NCBI GenBank assembly: GCA_963695195.1
Contig: CAVOGE010000007.1
Coordinates: 767,756-831,755, forward strand
Direction: 5' to 3'
Length of the DNA stretch: 64,000 nt
DNA from: an uncultured Chloroflexia bacterium
Lineage (GTDB): Bacteria; Chloroflexota; Limnocylindria; QHBO01
Shown: positions 19,801-39,846 of the stretch, piece after piece
Layout: the number at the start of each line of letters is the position of its first letter
How positions within the stretch are numbered: position 1 is the stretch's first letter
The notes under the pieces: generated by a model
What the model was told of the DNA's origin: nothing
What the model saw: only the letters and a program-made list of their open reading frames with translations
The model's database searches: none
Made by a program: the position numbers and the translations under genes

Positions 19801-21576
19801 CAGTTGGAGACGATCGATGCGGGCAGCAACGCGTTCGCCTGGCGCATCGCGGGGATCGTCTTCGGTTCGATCCTGGTCGGACTCATCTACCTGCTCACGG
19901 CGACCCTCTTCCGACGTCGACGGATCGCGGTCCTTGCAGCCGCCTTCGTGGCGATCGACGGGATGAGCTACGTCATGAGCCGGATTGCGATGAACGACAT
20001 CTTCGTGGCCACCTTCATCGTGGCCGCCTACCTGGTCTTCTGGCAGGTCTGGTCGGGGCGCTGGGTACGCAGCGCCTGGTGGGCCATGCCGCTGGTCGGC
20101 GTCCTGATCGGCCTGGCAGCCGCCAGCAAGTGGGTCGGCTGGTACGCGCTCTTCGGCCTGTGGGTCCTCGTCCTGGCGCGTTCCGGCCTCGGCCGCTTCC
20201 TGCTGGTCGCCGGTGTGGCATTCATCACCGTGGTGGGCGGCATCGGGGCCCCATGGCCGTTCCTGGTCGTCTGCCTGCTGGCACTCGGACTCGCGCTCGT
20301 CCTCGTCTGGGAGCGCCCGGTGCGCCTCACGGGCCGCGACCTGGCGGCGCTGCCGGCCATCGGCGTCGTGGCGGGCGGCATCGGCCTGGCCTTCACGATG
20401 GCCTACGGCACCGTGGAGGGGCGTGATCCGCGGAGCGCCGTGGAACTCCTCTTCGCGATCCTCGCGCGCGGCGCGCAGGCGGCGTGGCCAACCTGGCTGA
20501 TGCTGGGCGTCGCGGCCGTGCTCCTCCTGCTCCGCGCCTGGCGGTCACTGCGCGACCCCGCCAGCGACCGGCGCTGGTACCTCCCCGGCGAGCTCGGCGG
20601 CTTCGCCTGGCCGTGGGTTGGGGCGAGCCTGCTGGTCATCCCGCTGCTGGTCTACTTCGTGAGCTACGTCCCGTACCTGCAGCTCGGCCACGGCATCGCC
20701 ACGGTCGGGCAGGGGCCTGGCTACGGCTGGTCGCTCGATGAGCTGCACTCGCAGATGTTCGGCTACCACTTCGGTCTGCAGGCAGGCCACGCCGCTTCGT
20801 CGCCATGGTGGAGCTGGCCGCTCGACCTGAAGCCGGTCTGGTTCTACAGCCACTCCTTCGATGACCGGCAGATGGCGGTCATCTACAACGGCGGCAACCC
20901 GATCCTCTTCTGGGCGGGCGTCCCGGCCGTGCTCTGGGCCGCCGTCATGGCCTGGCGTCGTCGATCGCTTGCCCTCGCCGTGGTCGCCGCAGCATTCGCT
21001 TTCCAGTACCTGCCCTGGATCCGGATCGAGCGCGCCACCTTCCAGTACCACTACCTGACCGCCGTCCTCTTCTCGATGGTCGCCGTGGCCTACTTCGTCG
21101 ACGAGGGTCTTCGCTCGTGGGGATATCGGTCCCTGGCGATCGCCTTCCTGGTGGCCGTCGGGGTCGCGGGGGTGCTCGTCTTCCCACTCGGAGCCGCGCT
21201 GGTCATGCCGGACTGGTACATCAACGCAGCCCGCGCCCTGGCCCCATGGAACTACGCGTTCCAGTTCCCGTCGCCGCCGCAGGGAGAGCGTGCGCAGCTG
21301 ATCACGGCCGACAGCCTGAAGCTCGCGATCGGCACGGTCGTCTCGGTGGGCGCGGCCGCCTTCGCCCTGATGGGGCGGGACCTGCTCGGCTCCCGCGCCG
21401 CGCCGCCGCCGTCAGCCTCGACGACGGAAGGCGACCACCATGAGGAGCATGCCCACGACGACGAGCCCGAGTGGCCAGAGCCGATCGATGTCGATCTCCG
21501 GCAGGTACTCGCGGGCGAGGAAGTAGATCCCGAGCCCGATCAGGATCAGCCCGAAGACCCACGACCCGCCACCTGA
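16888..21576 (+). CDS. Giant (about 1563 aa) double-module GT-C glycosyltransferase: N-terminal polytopic GT-C module, then a PMT/ArnT-like module with a large extracytoplasmic insert
   Basis: Module 1 (about aa 1-500) is multi-TM with GT-C-like loops. A Pro-rich linker follows. Module 2 carries RLDFPRHFHFDEVYHARTA (the first-loop motif of the PMT family) and a PMT-type C-terminal 4-TM region (HSQMFGYHFGLQ...SPWWSWPLDLKPVWFY). A 350-400 aa beta-rich segment sits between TM1 and TM2 of module 2. A possible extended -10 promoter TGTATACT lies at 16822-16829. Confidence 0.8.
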   Translation: MTRDSVRERGARPFDRGLPLDPATLVILLIALGVLLRAFIGGVFVPLSGFRIDVGDFSAWAQRLAAGGPGEFYQADYFSDYPPGYMYVLWLLGSIGEWLRPVFGLSITPGLVKVPGILADAGVAWVLFIYARRFGDRWLGGWGGERIGVVAATIYLFNPGTIFNASVWGQVDSVGTLAILATLYLLARGWTEAAAVGAVVALLVKFQFAFLIPIVAIVGIKRHLFGGSSDPEQDGRGDPLRVLTSLAAGLGTLVVLILPFGLAVWAPADRAHSLIGKFLDAADTYKGLSINGFNLWRNPWSGLGDSLQWGCDVAPPTCPDGQGIAVVLGSFPVTWQLVGTVLFALAALIALWQIARRDDATGLLVGALVLAVAFYALPTRVHERYLFPALALAAPLVLLGRRWMVLYAALTVAFFANVYWVYTADWSWAGGSVMNPGLNGAPMPRDPLLAQFLFNDTGIYLLSAGIVVVLVWLLVQSAGMAVRASDLVLAPMRSSPPPAPASPLPEPQLPQPATHAPIPRNRPPFRSQVRHLLRRDPTDPYASEPSRRLDRRDALLLLGLVLFALVFRLWRLDFPRHFHFDEVYHARTATEMLSDWQEGWTRDTYEWTHPQLAKYLIAAGIAAVDPNKVLGRTELDAPATSLAVAPQRSAEGRPASIVFASAGDETITAREVTSGTVVSSWTLSSPVASLAYDEDANRLLVGLADTGTVSVFDLTAFLGQLGERGPPPGVAQIETGLAGIPEIVMPQGQPIILFRGSDGIAEVERETGAQIAFSSLVASGIGYVPAGSGEDGAPARVVAIDLSSGSLVALDAGSLQLDTGVIGSDGRLFLRAPPTGPIMVQARGKDTQVWVPIGPLPADDEHGPVAGGLTVFDEKLSEIDTVPLPGTPRLIGWQFVANIVYVAGTDPATGEGEAWAVMPHGNGGSQSVGFAAFDTSPLLGEPLALGFDISDHAEGDDHGRLLVSTNASAGAQLETIDAGSNAFAWRIAGIVFGSILVGLIYLLTATLFRRRRIAVLAAAFVAIDGMSYVMSRIAMNDIFVATFIVAAYLVFWQVWSGRWVRSAWWAMPLVGVLIGLAAASKWVGWYALFGLWVLVLARSGLGRFLLVAGVAFITVVGGIGAPWPFLVVCLLALGLALVLVWERPVRLTGRDLAALPAIGVVAGGIGLAFTMAYGTVEGRDPRSAVELLFAILARGAQAAWPTWLMLGVAAVLLLLRAWRSLRDPASDRRWYLPGELGGFAWPWVGASLLVIPLLVYFVSYVPYLQLGHGIATVGQGPGYGWSLDELHSQMFGYHFGLQAGHAASSPWWSWPLDLKPVWFYSHSFDDRQMAVIYNGGNPILFWAGVPAVLWAAVMAWRRRSLALAVVAAAFAFQYLPWIRIERATFQYHYLTAVLFSMVAVAYFVDEGLRSWGYRSLAIAFLVAVGVAGVLVFPLGAALVMPDWYINAARALAPWNYAFQFPSPPQGERAQLITADSLKLAIGTVVSVGAAAFALMGRDLLGSRAAPPPSASTTEGDHHEEHAHDDEPEWPEPIDVDLRQVLAGEEVDPEPDQDQPEDPRPAT

Positions 21577-21879
21577 GTGTCGGCGTGCCGGACGCCCGGA
21601 CTGCGCAGCTCGGCCGGCTGGCGCCACCCAGCCCGATGACGGCGCGGCGCCTCCCGGGTCCGGGTCGGCGGCGTCCGACGACCCCGCGCCTTCCGGAGCC
21701 TGTGGCACCACGATCCACATCACGATGTAGACGATGATGAAGATGCCCCCGGTGATGAGCCCCAGCACGGCCCACACCACGCGCACGATCGACGGGTCGA
21801 GGTCCAGGTACTCGGCGACGCCGCCCGCGACGCCGCTGATCATCTCCTCGCGACGCGACCGATAGAGCCGGCGATTCAT
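21412..21879 (-). CDS. PspC-domain membrane protein
   Basis: AGGAGG sits 7 nt upstream of ATG. N-terminal PspC domain RLYRSRREEMISGVAGGVAEYLDLDPSIVRVVWAVL, then TM segments. Its start overlaps the upstream gene stop (ATGA). Confidence 0.75.
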   Translation of the reverse strand: MNRRLYRSRREEMISGVAGGVAEYLDLDPSIVRVVWAVLGLITGGIFIIVYIVMWIVVPQAPEGAGSSDAADPDPGGAAPSSGWVAPAGRAAQSGRPARRHSGGGSWVFGLILIGLGIYFLAREYLPEIDIDRLWPLGLVVVGMLLMVVAFRRRG

Positions 21880-22838
21880 TCGCAGCCTCCTTCAGGGTTC
21901 AAGGTAAAGCTCCCGGCGTTGCCGCTGATCTCGAGTTGGATCTGCTGGGCCGCCCCCGCGTAGCCCGAGGTAGACCAGGTGTCGCCGACACGCGTCAGTC
22001 CGGAGTCATCCAGGTTGTGCGAGAAGGTGATGTTCGAGTCGACGGTGAACTCGACGGCCACCCCGTCGAGCGTGCAGACCTCAATCGACCCGGCATTGAC
22101 GCTCAGGCTGCCCCGGCTCTCCATCGCCGTCCCGATCGTGACCGATGCCGAACCGGCATTCAACGACAGGTCGAGGCGGTCGACATCTGCATCGGTCAGG
22201 TCGAGCGTCAACGAGCCGGCATTCGGACTCAGCGAGATGCTCGTGAAGTGACCCCCGCCGAGGTCGATGGTCGTGTCGGCCGCGTTGGGTGACGCGCTCA
22301 GCGCGTACACCGAATCGATCGGCAGGCTGACCTCCCAGCGCTGACGCCCGCCATCCCACCAGCGCCCGCTGTCCGGCGAGCGGACCTCGAGGCGATCGCC
22401 GCTCGCGGTGATCCGGGCCGGATCCCCGCCCCGCTGGCCGCTGGCGACCGTCCACGCCGATTCATCGGTCATGGCGACGCTCAAGGTGCCGCAGTTGAAG
22501 TCGAGCGCCACCCCGGCGCTGCCCCCGAAGTCGCCGCTGCGGGTGGAGAGGCTTGTCGGGTCGCCTCCGCCGCAGGCGAGCGACATCGTCGGTCCGACGG
22601 CGATCAACGCCCCACCGGCGGTGCCGACCACCAGGGCTGCCGCAACCGTCCCGATGACCGCGAACGGCGTGCTCGACACGACCACCGACACACCGATCAC
22701 GATCAGGATGACCGGCCAGAGGCGCCAGAGGTCGCGGAGGGCATCCTTGTCGAGATACCCCTGCTGGGCGGCCAGGGCGACTGCGCCGGCGGTGATGAGC
22801 GCCAGGCCCCAGAAGAGGAGCCCACGGTTGAGCGTCAT
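21876..22838 (-). CDS. DUF4097 (toast-rack, LiaF/YvlB-like) membrane protein paired with pspC
   Basis: N-terminal TMs, then a repetitive beta-rich domain (ISLSPNAGSLTLDLTDADVDRLDLSLNAGSASVTIG...SLSVNAGSIEV) typical of DUF4097. Start at Met66 of the six-frame ORF. Confidence 0.65.
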   Translation of the reverse strand: MTLNRGLLFWGLALITAGAVALAAQQGYLDKDALRDLWRLWPVILIVIGVSVVVSSTPFAVIGTVAAALVVGTAGGALIAVGPTMSLACGGGDPTSLSTRSGDFGGSAGVALDFNCGTLSVAMTDESAWTVASGQRGGDPARITASGDRLEVRSPDSGRWWDGGRQRWEVSLPIDSVYALSASPNAADTTIDLGGGHFTSISLSPNAGSLTLDLTDADVDRLDLSLNAGSASVTIGTAMESRGSLSVNAGSIEVCTLDGVAVEFTVDSNITFSHNLDDSGLTRVGDTWSTSGYAGAAQQIQLEISGNAGSFTLNPEGGCE

Positions 22839-24504: not shown

Positions 24505-25305
24505 ATGGCACTTATGACCCGCGAACTGAAGGCGTCCTTCGCCTTCGTGGAGCGGAACTTCAACCTGACAAAGCGCTACTGGGGCTGGGAGGTCGCCTTC
24601 CTGGTCTATGCCGTGGCGGGCGCACTCGCGGTGTCGCTCATCGGTGCAGGGCAGAACGACACCCGGCTCCTGCTCACGCTGGTCATCGGTGCCGTCTTCT
24701 GGAACTACCTGTCGGTCGTCTTCAGCTTCATCGCCGAGACGGTCAGCTGGGAGCGCTGGGAGGGGACGCTGGAGTACACCTTCATGGCGCCGGTGCGGCG
24801 CTATGCCCAGATGCTCGGCTCAACGCTCTACGCGGTCATCTTTGGTTTCGTGCACACCGTGGTGGTGCTGGTCGTGCTCGCGCTCTTCTTCGAGCTCGAC
24901 CTGAGCCAGGCGAACTTCGGCACCGCCGCGGTCTTCATGGTTCTCGGCTCGGTCTCGTTCATCGGGATCGGGATCATGACCGCCATCCTGCCGCTCATGT
25001 ATGTCGAGCGCGGTGCGCAGATGACCTTCGTGCTGCAGTCGGTGCTGCTGCTGATCAGCGGCGTCTACTACAGCATCGACGTGCTGCCCGGCTGGATGCA
25101 GGTGGCTTCGAACTTCTCACCCGCGACCTATGTCCTCGACGGTGTTCGTGCCGGACTGATCGACGGGGTGGGCATCAGTGAGCTGCTCCGGGACGTGTGG
25201 CCGCTCGCCCTGATGGGGATCATCTTCATCCCCTTGGGCCTGTGGGCGTTCGGTCGCGCGGAGCGCTACGCCAAGCGGACCGGCAAGCTCAAGCGAGTAG
25301 GCTGA
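24505..25305 (+). CDS. ABC-2 type exporter permease
   Basis: Six predicted TM helices. AGGAG sits 8 nt upstream of ATG 24505 (Met15 of the six-frame ORF). Confidence 0.8.
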   Translation: MALMTRELKASFAFVERNFNLTKRYWGWEVAFLVYAVAGALAVSLIGAGQNDTRLLLTLVIGAVFWNYLSVVFSFIAETVSWERWEGTLEYTFMAPVRRYAQMLGSTLYAVIFGFVHTVVVLVVLALFFELDLSQANFGTAAVFMVLGSVSFIGIGIMTAILPLMYVERGAQMTFVLQSVLLLISGVYYSIDVLPGWMQVASNFSPATYVLDGVRAGLIDGVGISELLRDVWPLALMGIIFIPLGLWAFGRAERYAKRTGKLKRVG

Positions 25306-25309
25306 ACCG

Positions 25310-26302
25310 ATGCGCACGCCACCGCCTGGCTTCGTCCTGCGCCCCTATGCCGACCTCCCGGATGTGCCGGAGATGCTCCGCGTCTTCACCGCCTCCAACG
25401 AGGCAGACGAGATCGACGAGCGGATGTCGGCCGCCGGGCTCACCACCTGGCTGAGCCATCCGAGCGAGCACTTCGATCCTGCCAACGACCTGGTGCTGGC
25501 CGAAGTGGATGGCGAGGTGGTGGGCTACGGCTGGGCCTTCTGGGTCGACACCACCGACGGCCTGCGCGAGTACCTCACGCGCGGCCACGTGCATCCCGCG
25601 TGGAGGAGACGAGGTGTCGGCAGCGCCATCATGGCGCGCAATGAGGCGCACCTGCGCGGCCTGGCCGCCAGGCACGAATCAGACCGTGAGCGGGTGATGG
25701 GAACATTCGCCGACGAGCGACGGCCCGGCGCAGTGGCGCTGGTGCTGGCGAACGGCTACCAGCCGGTCCGCTACTTCTTCGAGATGCTGCGGCCGACCCT
25801 TACCGATATCGACGTCCCGCCGATGCCGGATGGACTCGAGCTGCGGCCGGTTGGGGACCGCGACGGCTATCGGCGGATCTTCGACGCCGATGCCGAGGCC
25901 TTCATGGACCACTGGGGCGGCTTCGATGCCAGCGACGCGAGCTTCGAGGAATGGCTGGACCAGCCCGACTTCGACCCGTCGCTCTTCGTCGTGGCCTTCG
26001 ACGGTGACGAGATCGCGGGCGTCGTGATCAACGAGATCGACGCGCACGAGAACGAGGCGTTGCAGCGCAAGCGCGGGCTGCTGGCCAGCGTCTTCGTGCG
26101 GCGTCCATGGCGGCGCAGGGGCCTCGCCGCAGCGCTCGTCGCCCGCAGCCTGCTCCTCCTCCGGGAGCGCGGCATGACCAGCGCGTGGCTCGGCGTCGAT
26201 GGTGAGAATCCGACCGGGGCGCTGGGCGTCTACGAACGGGCCGGGTTCGCGGTCCATTCGCGCGGGATGCAGTACCGGAAGCCGATGGAGACAGACCGAT
26301 GA
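25310..26302 (+). CDS. Tandem double-GNAT N-acetyltransferase (MshD-like architecture), copy 1
   Basis: Two GNAT cores with RRRGVGSAIM and RRRGLAAALV acetyl-CoA binding motifs. About 330 aa. Confidence 0.75.
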   Translation: MRTPPPGFVLRPYADLPDVPEMLRVFTASNEADEIDERMSAAGLTTWLSHPSEHFDPANDLVLAEVDGEVVGYGWAFWVDTTDGLREYLTRGHVHPAWRRRGVGSAIMARNEAHLRGLAARHESDRERVMGTFADERRPGAVALVLANGYQPVRYFFEMLRPTLTDIDVPPMPDGLELRPVGDRDGYRRIFDADAEAFMDHWGGFDASDASFEEWLDQPDFDPSLFVVAFDGDEIAGVVINEIDAHENEALQRKRGLLASVFVRRPWRRRGLAAALVARSLLLLRERGMTSAWLGVDGENPTGALGVYERAGFAVHSRGMQYRKPMETDR

Positions 26303-27315
26303 GCCAAGCACCTGCAACCTCCGAGGCGCTGCGCCCGACGATCGACGGTCTCGTGGTGCGACCGTACCGGCCGGGCGACGGCCCTGCGGTCGCCGACCTG
26401 CTCAACGCCGATAACGAGGCCGACGGGCTTCCGTGGCGCGTGTCGGCCGAGGAGATCGAGAACTGGATGGCCCACCCGACCGCCGGGTTTACCGCCGAGC
26501 GTGATGCATCGGTCCTGGAGCTCGACGGTCGGATCGTGGGGCAGACCGAGGTGGAGTGGGTCGACACGACCGATGGCCTCCGCGAGTTCCGCCTTGGCTG
26601 CGCGCTGCACCCCGACGTTCGCCGGCGCGGGATCGGGCGCTGGCTGCTGCGCCTTGGCGAGGAACGCGCCGCCGAGCGCCTGGCGGAGCAGCCGACCGAG
26701 CGCCCCGTGGTGCTCGGCACCTGGTGTCCCGACCGGCGCGTCGGCAAGGTGGCGCTCATCGAGCAGGAGGGCTACCAACGTGCCCGCTACTTCTTCGACA
26801 TGGAGCGCCCCAGCCTCGACGGGATCGTCCTGCCGCCGATGCCGACCGGGATCGAGGTCCGCCCGATGCGTGAGGACCGGCTTCGGCAGCTGTGGGACGC
26901 AGATGTCGAGGCCTTCGCCGACCACTGGGGCGGCTTCGATGGTTCGGAAGCGCGGTTCAACCAGTGGCGGAACGATCCGAGATTCGATCTCGATCTGCTG
27001 GTCGTGGCCTGGGATGGTGACGAGATCGCGGGCGGTGTCGTCAACTCGATCAACGAGGCGGAGAATGCCGCCCTGGGGCGGCAGCGCGGCTGGCTCGATA
27101 GCGTCTTCGTGCGCAGACAGTGGCGCCGGCGGGGACTCGCCCGTGCCGTTGTCATGCGCTCCCTCGCACTCCTGCGCGAACGGGGAATGACGTGCGCCGG
27201 CCTCGGTGTCGACGCGGACAACGCCAACGAGGCGCTGCGCCTCTACACGGAGTGCGGATTCGTCACGGACCTGCGGTCAGCGGCGTATCGCAAGCCGATG
27301 GAGCTGGATCGATGA
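26299..27315 (+). CDS. Tandem double-GNAT N-acetyltransferase, copy 2
   Basis: Paralog of copy 1 with the same YFFEM/DHWGGFDGSE framework. The start overlaps the previous stop (ATGA). Confidence 0.75.
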   Translation: MSQAPATSEALRPTIDGLVVRPYRPGDGPAVADLLNADNEADGLPWRVSAEEIENWMAHPTAGFTAERDASVLELDGRIVGQTEVEWVDTTDGLREFRLGCALHPDVRRRGIGRWLLRLGEERAAERLAEQPTERPVVLGTWCPDRRVGKVALIEQEGYQRARYFFDMERPSLDGIVLPPMPTGIEVRPMREDRLRQLWDADVEAFADHWGGFDGSEARFNQWRNDPRFDLDLLVVAWDGDEIAGGVVNSINEAENAALGRQRGWLDSVFVRRQWRRRGLARAVVMRSLALLRERGMTCAGLGVDADNANEALRLYTECGFVTDLRSAAYRKPMELDR

Positions 27316-28322
27316 CGGTCGAGCTGCCGTACGCGCCGCCGATCCAGGGGCTGCGCTTCCGGCGCCTTGAGCGGCCCGCCGACGACGCCGCCTTGGCCGA
27401 TCTGGACAATGCGGGCTTCCGGGCCGACGGCATCGAATTCCGCCTCTCGGCGGCGCAGGTGGGCACCTGGCTCGATCACCCCTCTCGGATGGACCTGACC
27501 GAAGACCTGCTGCTCGCAGAAATCGATGGCACGCTCGTGGCGCATGCCGAGGCCGGCTGGGAGCTCGACAACGACGGGGGCCGCAATTACAACGTCTGGG
27601 GTCAGGTGCATCCGACCTGGCGCCGGCGTGGCCTCGGTAGGACGCTCCTTCGATGGAACGAGGAGCGCCAGCGCCAGGTAGGCGCGGGCCACCCCACAGG
27701 CGGCGAGCGCCGGCTACAGAGCTGGGCCGACGAAGGGGAGGTCGGCCGGCTCGCTCTGCTGGAGGCCAGCGGGTACCAGGTCGCCCGCTACGCGTTCGAA
27801 ATGACCCGGGCCACGCTGGAGGGTATCCCCGATTTCGCGCTGCCCAACGGAGTCGAGGTCCGCCCGGCGAGCGGGGCCGACATGCGCGCCATCTGGGAAC
27901 TCGAGGTCGAGGCCTTCAGCGACCATTGGGGCGCAATCGACGGCACTGAGGAGTCATTCGCACGGTTTGTCGCCGACCCGACCCACGACCGGTCGCTGTG
28001 GGTCATCGCGTGGCACCGCGACGAGATTGTTGGCCAAGTGCTCAACCGCATTAACGCAGAGGCCAATGCGGAGCTCGGAATGCTGCGCGGGCGGGTCAAC
28101 TCGGTCGGCGTGCGGAAGGCGTGGCGGCGGCAGGGGGTGGGACAGGCGCTGGTGCTGGCCAGCCTGAGGGTCTTGCGCCAAGCTGGCATGACCAGCGCGT
28201 CGCTCGGCGTCGATGCCGAGAACCCGCACGGCGCCCTGGGGATCTACGAGCGGGCCGGCTTCCAAGTCGTGCGCCGAGAACGGGTCTACCGCAAGGCGCT
28301 CGAGCAGTCGCAGCCGGGCTAG
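27312..28322 (+). CDS. Tandem double-GNAT N-acetyltransferase, copy 3
   Basis: Paralog with an ATGA overlap. RRRGLGRTLL and RRQGVGQALV motifs. Start at internal Met of six-frame ORF 27120..28322. Confidence 0.75.
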   Translation: MTVELPYAPPIQGLRFRRLERPADDAALADLDNAGFRADGIEFRLSAAQVGTWLDHPSRMDLTEDLLLAEIDGTLVAHAEAGWELDNDGGRNYNVWGQVHPTWRRRGLGRTLLRWNEERQRQVGAGHPTGGERRLQSWADEGEVGRLALLEASGYQVARYAFEMTRATLEGIPDFALPNGVEVRPASGADMRAIWELEVEAFSDHWGAIDGTEESFARFVADPTHDRSLWVIAWHRDEIVGQVLNRINAEANAELGMLRGRVNSVGVRKAWRRQGVGQALVLASLRVLRQAGMTSASLGVDAENPHGALGIYERAGFQVVRRERVYRKALEQSQPG

Positions 28323-36090: not shown

Positions 36091-37686
36091 ATGAGCGAGC
36101 CGACCGCTCCAATCCTGCGGCCCGTGGCCGCCTGGACCGTCCTGGTGATCGCCTCGCTGGGTGTCTTCCTGGGCGGCGCGGAACTGATGGTGGTGGCGAT
36201 CGCGCTGCCTTCGATCGTGGTCGACTTTGGGGGCTGGGCGGACCTGGCGCGGACCAGCTGGATCGTGAACGGCTACCTGGTCGCTTACGTGGTCGCGATG
36301 CCGCTCGCTGGCCGTGCCGCGGACCTGTGGGGCGCACGGCGGCTGTACGTCGTGGCGCTCCTCCTGTTCTCCGCCGGCAGCCTGGGCGCTGCCCTGTCGC
36401 GCTTCGCCGGTCCCGAGGCGGGGATCGGCTGGCTGATCGGTGCCCGCGTCGTGCAGGGCCTCGGCGGTGGGGCGCTCGTGCCGCTCTCGATGACGCTGGC
36501 CAGCCACCTGTTCGCCGGCCGCGCGCGCGCCACGGCGCTGGGAATCGAGGGGGCCGCCGCATTCGTCGGCATGGCCGTCGGTCCAGCCTACGGCGCCTGG
36601 GTGCTGCTGAATGTGTCCCTGCCGGTTCCGGGGCTCGACCTGGCCGGCTGGCAGTGGATCTTCTTCCTGAACGTGCCGGCCGGCCTGATCACCCTGGTCC
36701 TGCTCTACGTTGTGGCGGGCGGGGTCGAGACACCGCGGGCCCGAGGGCGCCTGGACCTGGTCGGCGGGCTGCTCGTCTCGGTCACCCTGCTCCTGGGGGT
36801 GGGCGCCCTGTCGCTTGCCGGGCAGCGGGGCTGGGGAGATCCACTCATCGCGGGCGGACTGGCGGCGTCGGCGATCACGCTGGTCGCCTTCGTGGCCCTG
36901 GAGCTCGGCCGTCGCTGGCCGCTGGTCGACCCGCGCCTCTTTCGCTCCGTCGAGTTCTCGGCCGCGAACGCGGTCAGCCTGCTGACCGGGTACACCCTGG
37001 CGACCATGATCATCGGCGGCCCGGTCTTCGTGAACCGCGTGCTGAACACGGGGCCCGACCAGGCAGCCGCGGCCCTCACTGCGCTCAGCCTCGCGATCGC
37101 GGGCGGGGCCCTGGTGGGCGGCGTCGCCTCGGGACGGATCGGAGAGCGGCTGCCCACCTTCGCCGGCGTGGCCGTCAGCGCGGTCGGCCTGTGGCTTGCA
37201 CTCGGCTGGGAGGTCGGGACCGAGCTGTCTCGCCTCCAGCGCGACCTGGCGCTGTTCGGCGTCGGCTTCGGGCTGACCGTCTCGCCGCGCGCCACCGCGG
37301 CGGTCGAGGCCGCGGGCGCATCGGCCTACGGGGTCGCCAGCGCCATGATGCAGATCACACGGACGATCGGGATGAGCGTCGGCCTTGCGCTGTTGACCAG
37401 CATCGGTCAGAACCGGATCGACGAGCTGAACGCGTTGATCAACGATCCGACGCGACGCGACGCGCTGGTGGTGACCCTGGGGCACCCGGAATTCGTGGGG
37501 ATCGATCCACGGGGAAGCCTGGCGCTGATCGACCTGCTCGAGTCCTGGTCGCGCGGCGAGGCTGCGGACGTGCTGCGGCTGGTATTCAGCCTCGCCCTGG
37601 GCGTGGCGGTGGCCACGCTCCCGGTGGCGCTGGGCGTGTCAGCTCGGAATCGGAGCCGACCGAACGGCCGACAGGCGGAGTCCTAG
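36091..37686 (+). CDS. MFS transporter, 14-TMS DHA2-like
   Basis: 531 aa. MFS motif A-like GRAADLWGARR. 14 predicted TM segments. Confidence 0.85.
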   Translation: MSEPTAPILRPVAAWTVLVIASLGVFLGGAELMVVAIALPSIVVDFGGWADLARTSWIVNGYLVAYVVAMPLAGRAADLWGARRLYVVALLLFSAGSLGAALSRFAGPEAGIGWLIGARVVQGLGGGALVPLSMTLASHLFAGRARATALGIEGAAAFVGMAVGPAYGAWVLLNVSLPVPGLDLAGWQWIFFLNVPAGLITLVLLYVVAGGVETPRARGRLDLVGGLLVSVTLLLGVGALSLAGQRGWGDPLIAGGLAASAITLVAFVALELGRRWPLVDPRLFRSVEFSAANAVSLLTGYTLATMIIGGPVFVNRVLNTGPDQAAAALTALSLAIAGGALVGGVASGRIGERLPTFAGVAVSAVGLWLALGWEVGTELSRLQRDLALFGVGFGLTVSPRATAAVEAAGASAYGVASAMMQITRTIGMSVGLALLTSIGQNRIDELNALINDPTRRDALVVTLGHPEFVGIDPRGSLALIDLLESWSRGEAADVLRLVFSLALGVAVATLPVALGVSARNRSRPNGRQAES

Positions 37687-38369
37687 AGGATCGGCTCGGC
37701 CACCACGACCAGCTCGCCCCAGTTGCGGTTGTAGCCCTGGCTCGTCTGCAGGGTGAGCCGCTCGTGGTCGACCGGCTTGGTCCACCACACGCCGGCGCAG
37801 CCGGGAGGTGCGTACAGCATCGCGGGGGGCAGCTTCCACGCGGCCTCGGCGCGGTCGTCGGGGCAGCTCACGTTGGGGTGGATCTCCGTGACCCGGTAGC
37901 GCAGCACCTGGTCGTCGGACATGAGGATCTTGACCTCGGCGCCCAGGAGGACATTCCAGAGTGGCTTGAACAGGTTCAACTGGGCATGCGCGAAGAGATA
38001 GCTGGTGGTGCCGCGTCCCGGCTGTGAGCTCTCGCGCAGGATGTAGGCACCGTCGTGGGGAGGGAAGTCGTCGTGACCGGGGAGCACGGCCTGCATGACC
38101 GGGATGTTGATGCCGACCGACTCGATCTGGATCTGCGCCGCAACCCAGTCTGCCGGGATCGGCGTCGGTGAGGGAGTCGGGGCGTCGGTGGGCGCCGAGC
38201 CGGTCGGACTCGGACTCACCACGGCGACCTGGCTGCTCGGGTCGGGGATGTCGGGCAGGCTCGGGCTGGGGCGCGCGTCGAGGTCCAGCTGGCCGACCAG
38301 GATCAGCCCCACGCCCGCGACGGCAAGCAGCAGCGGCAGCGCGATGGTCGGAGCGGAGAGGCGCCTCAT
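37683..38369 (-). CDS. Sortase-fold membrane-anchored protein with Ser in place of the catalytic Cys
   Basis: N-terminal TM and a Pro/Ser/Thr linker. LFAHAQ aligns to the sortase His block. LTLQTS aligns to TLxTC (the Ser codon AGC was verified). NRNWGELVVVA aligns to the Arg block. Confidence 0.55.
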   Translation of the reverse strand: MRRLSAPTIALPLLLAVAGVGLILVGQLDLDARPSPSLPDIPDPSSQVAVVSPSPTGSAPTDAPTPSPTPIPADWVAAQIQIESVGINIPVMQAVLPGHDDFPPHDGAYILRESSQPGRGTTSYLFAHAQLNLFKPLWNVLLGAEVKILMSDDQVLRYRVTEIHPNVSCPDDRAEAAWKLPPAMLYAPPGCAGVWWTKPVDHERLTLQTSQGYNRNWGELVVVAEPIL

Positions 38370-38391
38370 GCGCCGGAGTCTAGCAAGCGCG

Positions 38392-39846
38392 CTAGAAGAG
38401 GCTCGCGACCGAGGCCTGGAGGAAGGTGAGCACCGGCTCCGGGAAGAGCCCCAGGGCCAGGACGGCGACCACCGAGATCGCCAGCGCAGCGACGCCGAGC
38501 GGCGAACGATCGATCGGTGCCGGCTCGGCCTCGGGGTCGCGCATGTACATGTAGACGATCACGCGCAGGTAGTAGAACGCGGCCAGCGCGGCATTCAGGG
38601 CGATCGCCACCGCGAGCCATGCGACGCCGGCATCGACGGTCGCGATCAGCACGTACAGCTTGGCGAAGAAGCCGACCGTCGGCGGGATGCCTGTCAGCGA
38701 CAGGAGCAGGATCGCCATCCCGGCGGCCAGCCACGGCGCGCGTGCGGCCAGGCCCGCGAAGCCGCCCAACCCGCCGAAGCGGCGCGGGTCGCGCTGCAGC
38801 ATGCCGACGACCGCGAAGGCAGCCAGGTTCATGACGCCATAGCCGAGCACGTAGAAGAGGACCGACTCGATCCCCTGCGCGCGGATGTCGGGGTTCGTCG
38901 CGTGGGCGAACGCGGCCAGGCCGGCCAGGATGTAGCCGGTGTGAGCAATGCTCGAGTAGGCGAGCATGCGCTTCACGTTGGTCTGGGTGAGCGCCACGAT
39001 GTTGCCGCCGGTCATGGTCACCACCGCCAGGATCGCCATCACACCGAACCAGTCCGCGCTCATCGGGCCGAGCCCCTCGGCGAAGAGGCGCACCAGCAGG
39101 GCAAAGGCACCGAGCTTTGGCCCAACTGAGAGAAAGCCGGTGATCGGCGTTGGCGCGCCCTGGTACGCGTCGGGGGTCCAGAAGTGGAACGGCACGGCGG
39201 CCGCCTTGAAGGTGGCGCCCACGGTCAGCAGCCCGATCGCCAGGATCCCGGCCGGGCCTGCCGCGTTCGCCAGGTCGCTCATCCCATCGATCCGCGTTGT
39301 CCCGGTCAGCCCGTACGTCCAGCTGATCCCGAAGAGCAGGATGGCGCTGGCGAACGATCCGAGCAGGAAGTACTTGAGACCGCCCTCGTTGCTGTACCGA
39401 TCGGTCTTGTGGAAGGCGGTCATCAGGTAGGCGGGCATGACCATCAGCTCGAGGCCGATGAAGAGTGTGATCAGGTCAGCGCTCGAGGCCAGCACGAACA
39501 TGCCGATCAGGCTGAAGACGAGGATCGCGTTGAACTCGCCGAGCGGCAGCCGGCGCTGCGCCAGGTAGGAGGGGGCGAAGAGCGCCGCCAGGATGCCGAT
39601 GACCACGGTCGCGGCCTTGAAGAAGACCGACAGGTCGTCGACCACGTAGAAGCCCTCGAAGATGCGGTCGTTGACGCCCCAGACCGGGATGCAGGCGGCG
39701 CCGACCAGGACAAGGCCGGCCACGGTGATGGGCGTCAGGATCCACTTGCCGCTCGGTGGCAGGAACAGGTCCACGGTGATGATCGCCAGCACCAGGAGGA
39801 CCAGGATCAGCTCGGGGAGGAGCGGGGCGAGGTCGATCAGCTGCAT
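38392..39846 (-). CDS. nuoN: NADH-quinone oxidoreductase subunit N
   Basis: 484 aa antiporter-like subunit. Last gene of the nuo operon. Confidence 0.9.
   Translation of the reverse strand: MQLIDLAPLLPELILVLLVLAIITVDLFLPPSGKWILTPITVAGLVLVGAACIPVWGVNDRIFEGFYVVDDLSVFFKAATVVIGILAALFAPSYLAQRRLPLGEFNAILVFSLIGMFVLASSADLITLFIGLELMVMPAYLMTAFHKTDRYSNEGGLKYFLLGSFASAILLFGISWTYGLTGTTRIDGMSDLANAAGPAGILAIGLLTVGATFKAAAVPFHFWTPDAYQGAPTPITGFLSVGPKLGAFALLVRLFAEGLGPMSADWFGVMAILAVVTMTGGNIVALTQTNVKRMLAYSSIAHTGYILAGLAAFAHATNPDIRAQGIESVLFYVLGYGVMNLAAFAVVGMLQRDPRRFGGLGGFAGLAARAPWLAAGMAILLLSLTGIPPTVGFFAKLYVLIATVDAGVAWLAVAIALNAALAAFYYLRVIVYMYMRDPEAEPAPIDRSPLGVAALAISVVAVLALGLFPEPVLTFLQASVASLF

Follow-up and report, generated by a model that had tools for sequence, protein, structure and literature searches.

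We found that a gene in a 64,000-nucleotide stretch of an uncultured Chloroflexia bacterium (the window; GCA_963695195.1, contig CAVOGE010000007.1) encodes a predicted membrane-anchored, sortase-type surface protein in which the textbook catalytic cysteine is a strictly conserved serine. Its relatives suggest that some soil bacteria run the "cysteine transpeptidase" sortase chemistry with serine. The Ser-for-Cys replacement, first noticed in a first-pass annotation made from the sequence alone, is real. The interpretation given there, a naturally Cys-less class E/F-like sortase homolog (inactive scaffold or Ser-based acyl-enzyme) or a point error, was only partly supported.

The ORF is located at 37683..38369 on the minus strand and encodes 228 aa plus a TAG stop. 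The CDS is complete, and homologues align from residue 1. It starts 22 nt after the stop of a Proton_antipo_M (nuoN-type) gene (38392..39846) and overlaps a convergent MFS transporter gene (36091..37686) by 4 nt. The protein begins with MRRLS..PLLLAVAGVGLILVG, a hydrophobic membrane anchor (38289..38348, residues about 8-27, modelled as a helix at residues 10-30) with invariant P12, L13, L15, G19, L22, and G26. A low-complexity Pro/Ser/Thr-rich linker follows (38154..38273, residues about 33-72), where the blocks 31-70 have mean pLDDT of 42-64 and residues 50-61 and 63-67 fall below 50. The predicted sortase beta-barrel domain (37686..38147, residues 75-228) contains LFAHAQ and RLTLQTSQGYNRNWGELVVVA, as the first-pass annotation described.

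The domain matched Pfam Sortase PF04203 with 38 bits (gathering score 26.6) over residues 80-226, covering profile positions 1-124 of 125. An AlphaFold2 model built from 39 family members had a mean pLDDT of 77.6, with about 90 over residues 71-160 and 65-86 over the rest of the domain. By Foldseek, the 50 best PDB matches were all sortases, covering classes A, C, D, and E (probability 1.00, E about 1e-7), in line with the eight-stranded sortase beta-barrel.

Sequence searches against PDB chains, with either the single protein or the family profile, retrieved nothing relevant, since the family is too divergent for that route. Thus, we bridged the alignment through distant relatives. An HMM of the family aligned its consensus erltlqtSqGynrnyGElivva with ERLTLVTCWPYRDNTHRLIVVA of canonical Cys-type relatives, and a profile-profile comparison with a Cys/Ser clade gave the same register with 99.8% probability (E 1e-27). 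Ser210 (AGC, 37740..37742) occupies the position of the TLxTC cysteine, at the end of strand 204-210. His128 (CAT, 37986..37988) occupies that of the catalytic His, at the end of strand 122-128, and is invariant. The canonical Arg position, at the start of strand 220-226, is occupied by an invariant Glu219 (37713..37715), whereas Arg215 (37725..37727) lies four residues upstream. Both are in the invariant beta7-beta8 loop QGYNRNWGE (37713..37739). A family-specific, Pro-rich insertion of about 23 residues in the beta6-beta7 loop (37770..37874, residues 166-200) carries the invariant Cys169 (37863..37865) and Cys191 (37797..37799), which presumably form a disulfide.

These assignments correct several details of the first-pass annotation. 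The Ser codon is about 28 nt from the position given there (about 37768-37770), and the change from AGC to TGC is a transversion rather than a transition. The protein is not Cys-less, and the Arg taken as part of the Arg block is R215 rather than the canonical one. Two observations had been set beforehand as able to overturn the Ser reading, and neither was found: no homologue or locus examined has TGC at this codon, and the profile alignments place the TLxTC Cys on S210, not on the cysteine of GCAGV.

The serine is not an error, and it is under selection. The protein database returned 1153 homologues, and in the best 120 (59-100% identity) S210, H128, R215, E219, C169, C191, and the whole 12-residue block QTSQGYNRNWGE around the Ser were invariant. 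A scan of one genome per species confirmed a relative in 171 stretches, and nearly all of the 80 loci kept were from Limnocylindria or other Chloroflexota MAGs. In 84 loci the residue was always Ser, encoded by AGC (63), TCG (13), TCC (5), or TCA (3), and the Glu was always GAG. The TCN codons fall in two or three subclades, so the family has crossed between the two Ser codon boxes while staying Ser. The dN/dS of the catalytic domain was 0.04-0.23 in ten pairs with at least 76% amino-acid identity.

In all loci long enough to judge, the gene lies between nuoL/M/N and a convergent MFS gene, although the MFS gene is missing in a few of them. In about half of the loci, otsA and otsB are inserted between nuoN and the sortase gene. 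Beyond the MFS gene there are an ABC transporter, an ArsR regulator, a CDP-alcohol phosphatidyltransferase, inositol-1-phosphate synthase, and two lipid-A-type acyltransferases. The first-pass annotation remarked on the proximity of glycosylation and PIM surface loci; this link is conserved synteny only, and no functional link is shown. We scanned the 64-kb window and 85 orthologous loci (+/-10 kb) for ORFs with C-terminal sorting signals, and the only hits were false positives, mainly the last TM helix of the PI synthase ("IALAG").

An exhaustive profile search of 1.84 billion representative proteins gave 485 hits. Among the 150 best, 114 had a readable motif, and their residues at the nucleophile and Arg positions were C/R in 35 (the canonical pair), S/R in 29, S/E in 23 (the family studied here), S/K in 19, S/V in 4, C/K in 2, S/L in 1, and A/N in 1. 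Thus, the nucleophile position holds Ser (76) or Cys (37) and almost nothing else, with a single Ala. Cys and Ser forms were interleaved in a neighbour-joining tree, although this tree is crude and has no support values. We searched for residues covarying with Cys versus Ser and detected no compensatory residue, nor anything else beyond phylogenetic signal. The few named members are Chloroflexota.

Membership of class E or F, whose block order the first-pass annotation saw in the protein, is not supported. The protein scored 14 bits for class F (NF033748, cut-off 166) and gave no hit at E <= 10 for class E (NF033747, cut-off 160), where relatives scored 21-52 bits. None of these proteins, Cys-type included, reached the NCBIfam cut-off of any sortase class A-F; only the general TIGR01076 model was passed, and only by some Cys-type members. 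This is an unclassified clade. The protein shares with class E and F sortases, the housekeeping sortases of Actinobacteria, a signal anchor, a Pro-rich linker, and a housekeeping-like, stand-alone gene in a high-GC genome.

Ser-type relatives seem to be working sortases. The S/R-type protein P0162 is encoded directly downstream of a 173-aa secreted Ig-like (Big_1) protein that ends in ...ALPDTSTASGVPAS-ILWLVVGGVLILMFGAF-RIRAQR, a textbook sorting signal, and a DUF4012 gene follows. The same three-gene arrangement occurs on a 4.15-Mb contig and in a Limnocylindrales MAG, with the signals LPRTD and LPNTS. All but one of the 119 closest homologues of P0162 had a readable motif, and every one of those was Ser-type (117 S/R, 1 S/K). 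In 80 metagenome loci of this subclade, 20 Ser-type and 8 Cys-type genes lie directly downstream of a gene ending in LPxTS, a hydrophobic segment, and a basic tail; many of the remaining contigs are too short to show the neighbour. Ser-type and Cys-type enzymes from these pairs are 60-80% identical, with identical 20-mers around the nucleophile apart from C/S, and their adjacent substrates are 68-78% identical. Interchange of Cys and Ser between close orthologues that keep the same substrate gene is hard to reconcile with the Ser forms being dead. This wider pattern, which the first-pass annotation did not see, moves the balance from an inactive scaffold towards a Ser-based enzyme.

We suggest that the gene encodes a type-II membrane-anchored, extracytoplasmic sortase-family enzyme, the core, single-locus orthologue of the class Limnocylindria, that would work through a serine acyl-enzyme (probability about 0.5). 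In this view, Ser210, activated by His128 and possibly helped by Glu219, would attack a peptide bond in a secreted or membrane-tethered substrate to form an ester acyl-enzyme, which an acceptor nucleophile or water would then resolve. Since no substrate gene is adjacent, it looks like a housekeeping type whose substrates lie elsewhere in the genome, and the enlarged beta6-beta7 loop, probably stapled by a disulfide, suggests a recognition motif different from that of its relatives. Our data establish the homology, the fold, the position of the residues, the strict selection for Ser, the class-wide conservation, and the fact that Ser-type relatives keep operons with canonical LPxTS substrates just as their Cys-type orthologues do. 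In contrast, the catalytic activity of this protein, including any transpeptidation through an acyl-enzyme, its substrate, and its acceptor are inferences. Against this reading, the C184S change in Staphylococcus aureus SrtA is reported to decrease activity dramatically (PMC4827206) and is used as a "cys-less" background (PMC5578623). Moreover, the canonical Arg is lost, with any compensation by R215 remaining hypothetical, no covarying compensatory residue was detected, no ORF bearing a sorting signal occurs in the 64-kb window or within +/-10 kb in 85 loci, and the operon evidence comes from paralogous S/R-type relatives rather than from the S/E family itself.

A pseudo-sortase, i.e., a catalytically dead, membrane-anchored binding or scaffold protein that keeps the sortase groove to bind a peptide or envelope ligand, remains possible but is less likely. 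Two of the three canonical catalytic residues are changed, SrtA C184S is nearly inactive, and no substrate gene was found nearby. However, a dispensable nucleophile position would be expected to drift to Ala, Gly, or Thr, whereas Ser is invariant through switches between codon boxes and is the only common alternative to Cys in the whole clade. Besides, His128 and the loop around the Ser are the most conserved part of the protein, and Ser-type relatives keep the same substrate operons as Cys-type ones.

An active serine enzyme with a changed reaction seems unlikely, but is not excluded. A Ser210/Glu219(/His128) site could act as a hydrolase or transfer substrates to a non-peptidoglycan acceptor instead of performing classical LPXTG sorting. 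The S/E combination is unique to this family, while relatives with LPxTS operons are S/R or C/R; the 23-residue insertion affects the loop that reads the sorting motif in SrtA; and the synteny with PI synthase, Ino1, and acyltransferase genes is conserved class-wide. However, there is no direct evidence for any alternative substrate, and the synteny also includes nuo and otsAB, so it may only reflect a low rate of rearrangement. The Arg position lies on the far side of the nucleophile from His in sortase structures, so a classical triad with Glu is not obvious. More speculatively, Limnocylindria and related Chloroflexota could use genuine serine sortases, with the site of this family rebuilt further into a Ser210/His128/Glu219 arrangement with a relocated Arg215, which would form an ester acyl-enzyme and may attach envelope proteins to an acceptor other than peptidoglycan, such as a glycolipid or polysaccharide. 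That would be a new catalytic type on the sortase fold.

It is very unlikely that C169 or C191 is the real nucleophile: both are invariant and lie in the loop that covers the active site in sortases, but the alignments place the nucleophile on S210, the insertion is absent from all other Ser-type groups, and two invariant Cys in an exported domain fit a disulfide better. A sequencing or assembly error at a TGC codon, one base change from AGC, is refuted by Ser in all 120 homologues and 84 independent assemblies with four codons.

Sortases are defined and classified as cysteine transpeptidases (MEROPS C60, such as S. aureus SrtA with H120/C184/R197), and the laboratory Cys-to-Ser mutant is treated as dead. 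The protein shares with them the fold, the His at the end of the same strand, the L-T-L-x-T motif on beta7, and the N-terminal anchor plus linker, and its relatives have adjacent LPxT[GS] substrates; it differs in Ser for Cys, Glu for Arg, the insertion with a Cys pair, and the lack of an identified substrate. The Chloroflexota S/R-type "LTLQTSTSY..PRF" sortases of the Big_1 - sortase - DUF4012 operons, uncharacterised and found here, share the Ser, the His, and the LTLQTS motif, with an HH probability of 99.8%, but keep the canonical Arg, lack the insertion, and have a dedicated adjacent LPxTS substrate. In other protease clans, such as the PA clan (chymotrypsin versus picornain 3C), the same fold is also used with either nucleophile, and the AGY and TCN codons of Ser can be bridged through Cys (Brenner's "two serines" argument). 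However, the Ser forms there have a full Ser-His-Asp triad, and no equivalent acid partner for His has been identified here.

Full-text literature searches found no description of natural Ser-type sortases, and a 2024 structural review of sortases does not contain the word "serine", although most subscription-journal papers were outside the searched literature and this absence is not proof. This clade contains hundreds of natural sequences in which Ser replaces Cys under strong selection. If active, these would be the first serine sortases, which would resist oxidation and thiol reagents and form an ester instead of a thioester intermediate. This is of interest for enzyme evolution (a Cys/Ser switch caught between close orthologues, with the Ser/Cys operon pairs as a ready-made experiment), for sortase-mediated ligation technology, and for understanding the cell envelope of an abundant, uncultured soil and freshwater class.

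Within the clade, the S/E family is the most derived state, with Ser for Cys, Glu for Arg, an invariant NRN in the beta7-beta8 loop, and the enlarged beta6-beta7 loop. A related S/R group ("LTLQTSTGPN..DPRF", e.g., P0146) also lies just downstream of nuoLMN and also lacks an adjacent substrate, which suggests a housekeeping-type lineage from which the S/E family arose. In a further subgroup, the Ig domain and a "C..GLPxT[SA]" motif are fused N-terminally to the sortase domain, again with either Cys or Ser. We also looked for an LPxTG-like motif in the linker of the enzymes themselves: P0146 has "PPDTG", but it is not conserved in its group. In the family studied here, the juxtamembrane motif S-L-P-x-I-P-D/E-P (38238..38261, minus strand, residues 37-44) is conserved, with invariant L38, I41, and P42, but it is not sorting-signal-like.

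In Chloroflexota, we found a conserved operon in which a small secreted Big_1 Ig-like protein ending in LPxT[SD], a hydrophobic segment, and a basic tail is followed by a Ser-type sortase (or, in orthologues, a Cys-type one), then by DUF4012, and often by a Wzz/ParA-type kinase and Wzy polysaccharide genes. This arrangement was observed at the loci L086 (7417-10672), L170 (4333-7600), and L171 (2481-5811), and at the metagenome loci L090-L128. Besides, some relatives (proteins P0169, P0186, P0200, P0209, and P0225, at about columns 1-210 of their alignment A2, and locus L135) were single-chain fusions with a signal peptide, an Ig-like domain, a 'C..GLPxT[SA]' sorting-type motif, a linker, and a sortase domain, either Cys or Ser. 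In these fusions, the substrate motif sits N-terminal to the enzyme in the same polypeptide, which hints at cis-processing.

The profile search of representative proteins also retrieved a third Ser-type group (P0151, P0170, P0174, P0177, and others), with 'LWLQTSE', Lys or Val at the Arg position, a conserved 'YPxCDVA' Cys, and a C-terminal extension ending '..AHP...P..C'. Rare Cys-nucleophile versions of this group exist (P0202 and P0258).

Regarding the genomic context of the target gene, about half of the orthologous loci presented otsA (trehalose-6-P synthase) and a divergent otsB between nuoN and the sortase gene, as seen in the orthologous locus L001 (3482-5970). The window has only a 22-nt gap there (38370-38391), so the sortase gene is probably co-transcribed with the nuo operon in this genome.

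Three of the orthologous loci (L011, L022, and L029) came from MAGs labelled Zixibacteriota, Methylomirabilota, and Steroidobacteraceae and carried the target gene with the full Limnocylindria synteny; these contigs are probably mis-binned. Moreover, two MAGs (one with loci L019 and L038, the other with loci L039 and L049) each carried two copies of the target gene on separate contigs with the same flanking genes, which is more likely due to mixed strains in a bin than to true paralogues.

Elsewhere in the window, a 159-aa ORF on the minus strand (21412-21891) ends in two hydrophobic segments and RRRG; it superficially resembles a sorting tail but has no LPxTG-like motif. Finally, the plus strand harbors three tandem, partly overlapping paralogous ORFs at 25301-28322 (25301-26302, 26206-27315, and 27102-28322), which share a C-terminus of the form ERGMT.A.LGVD..N...AL..Y...GF.
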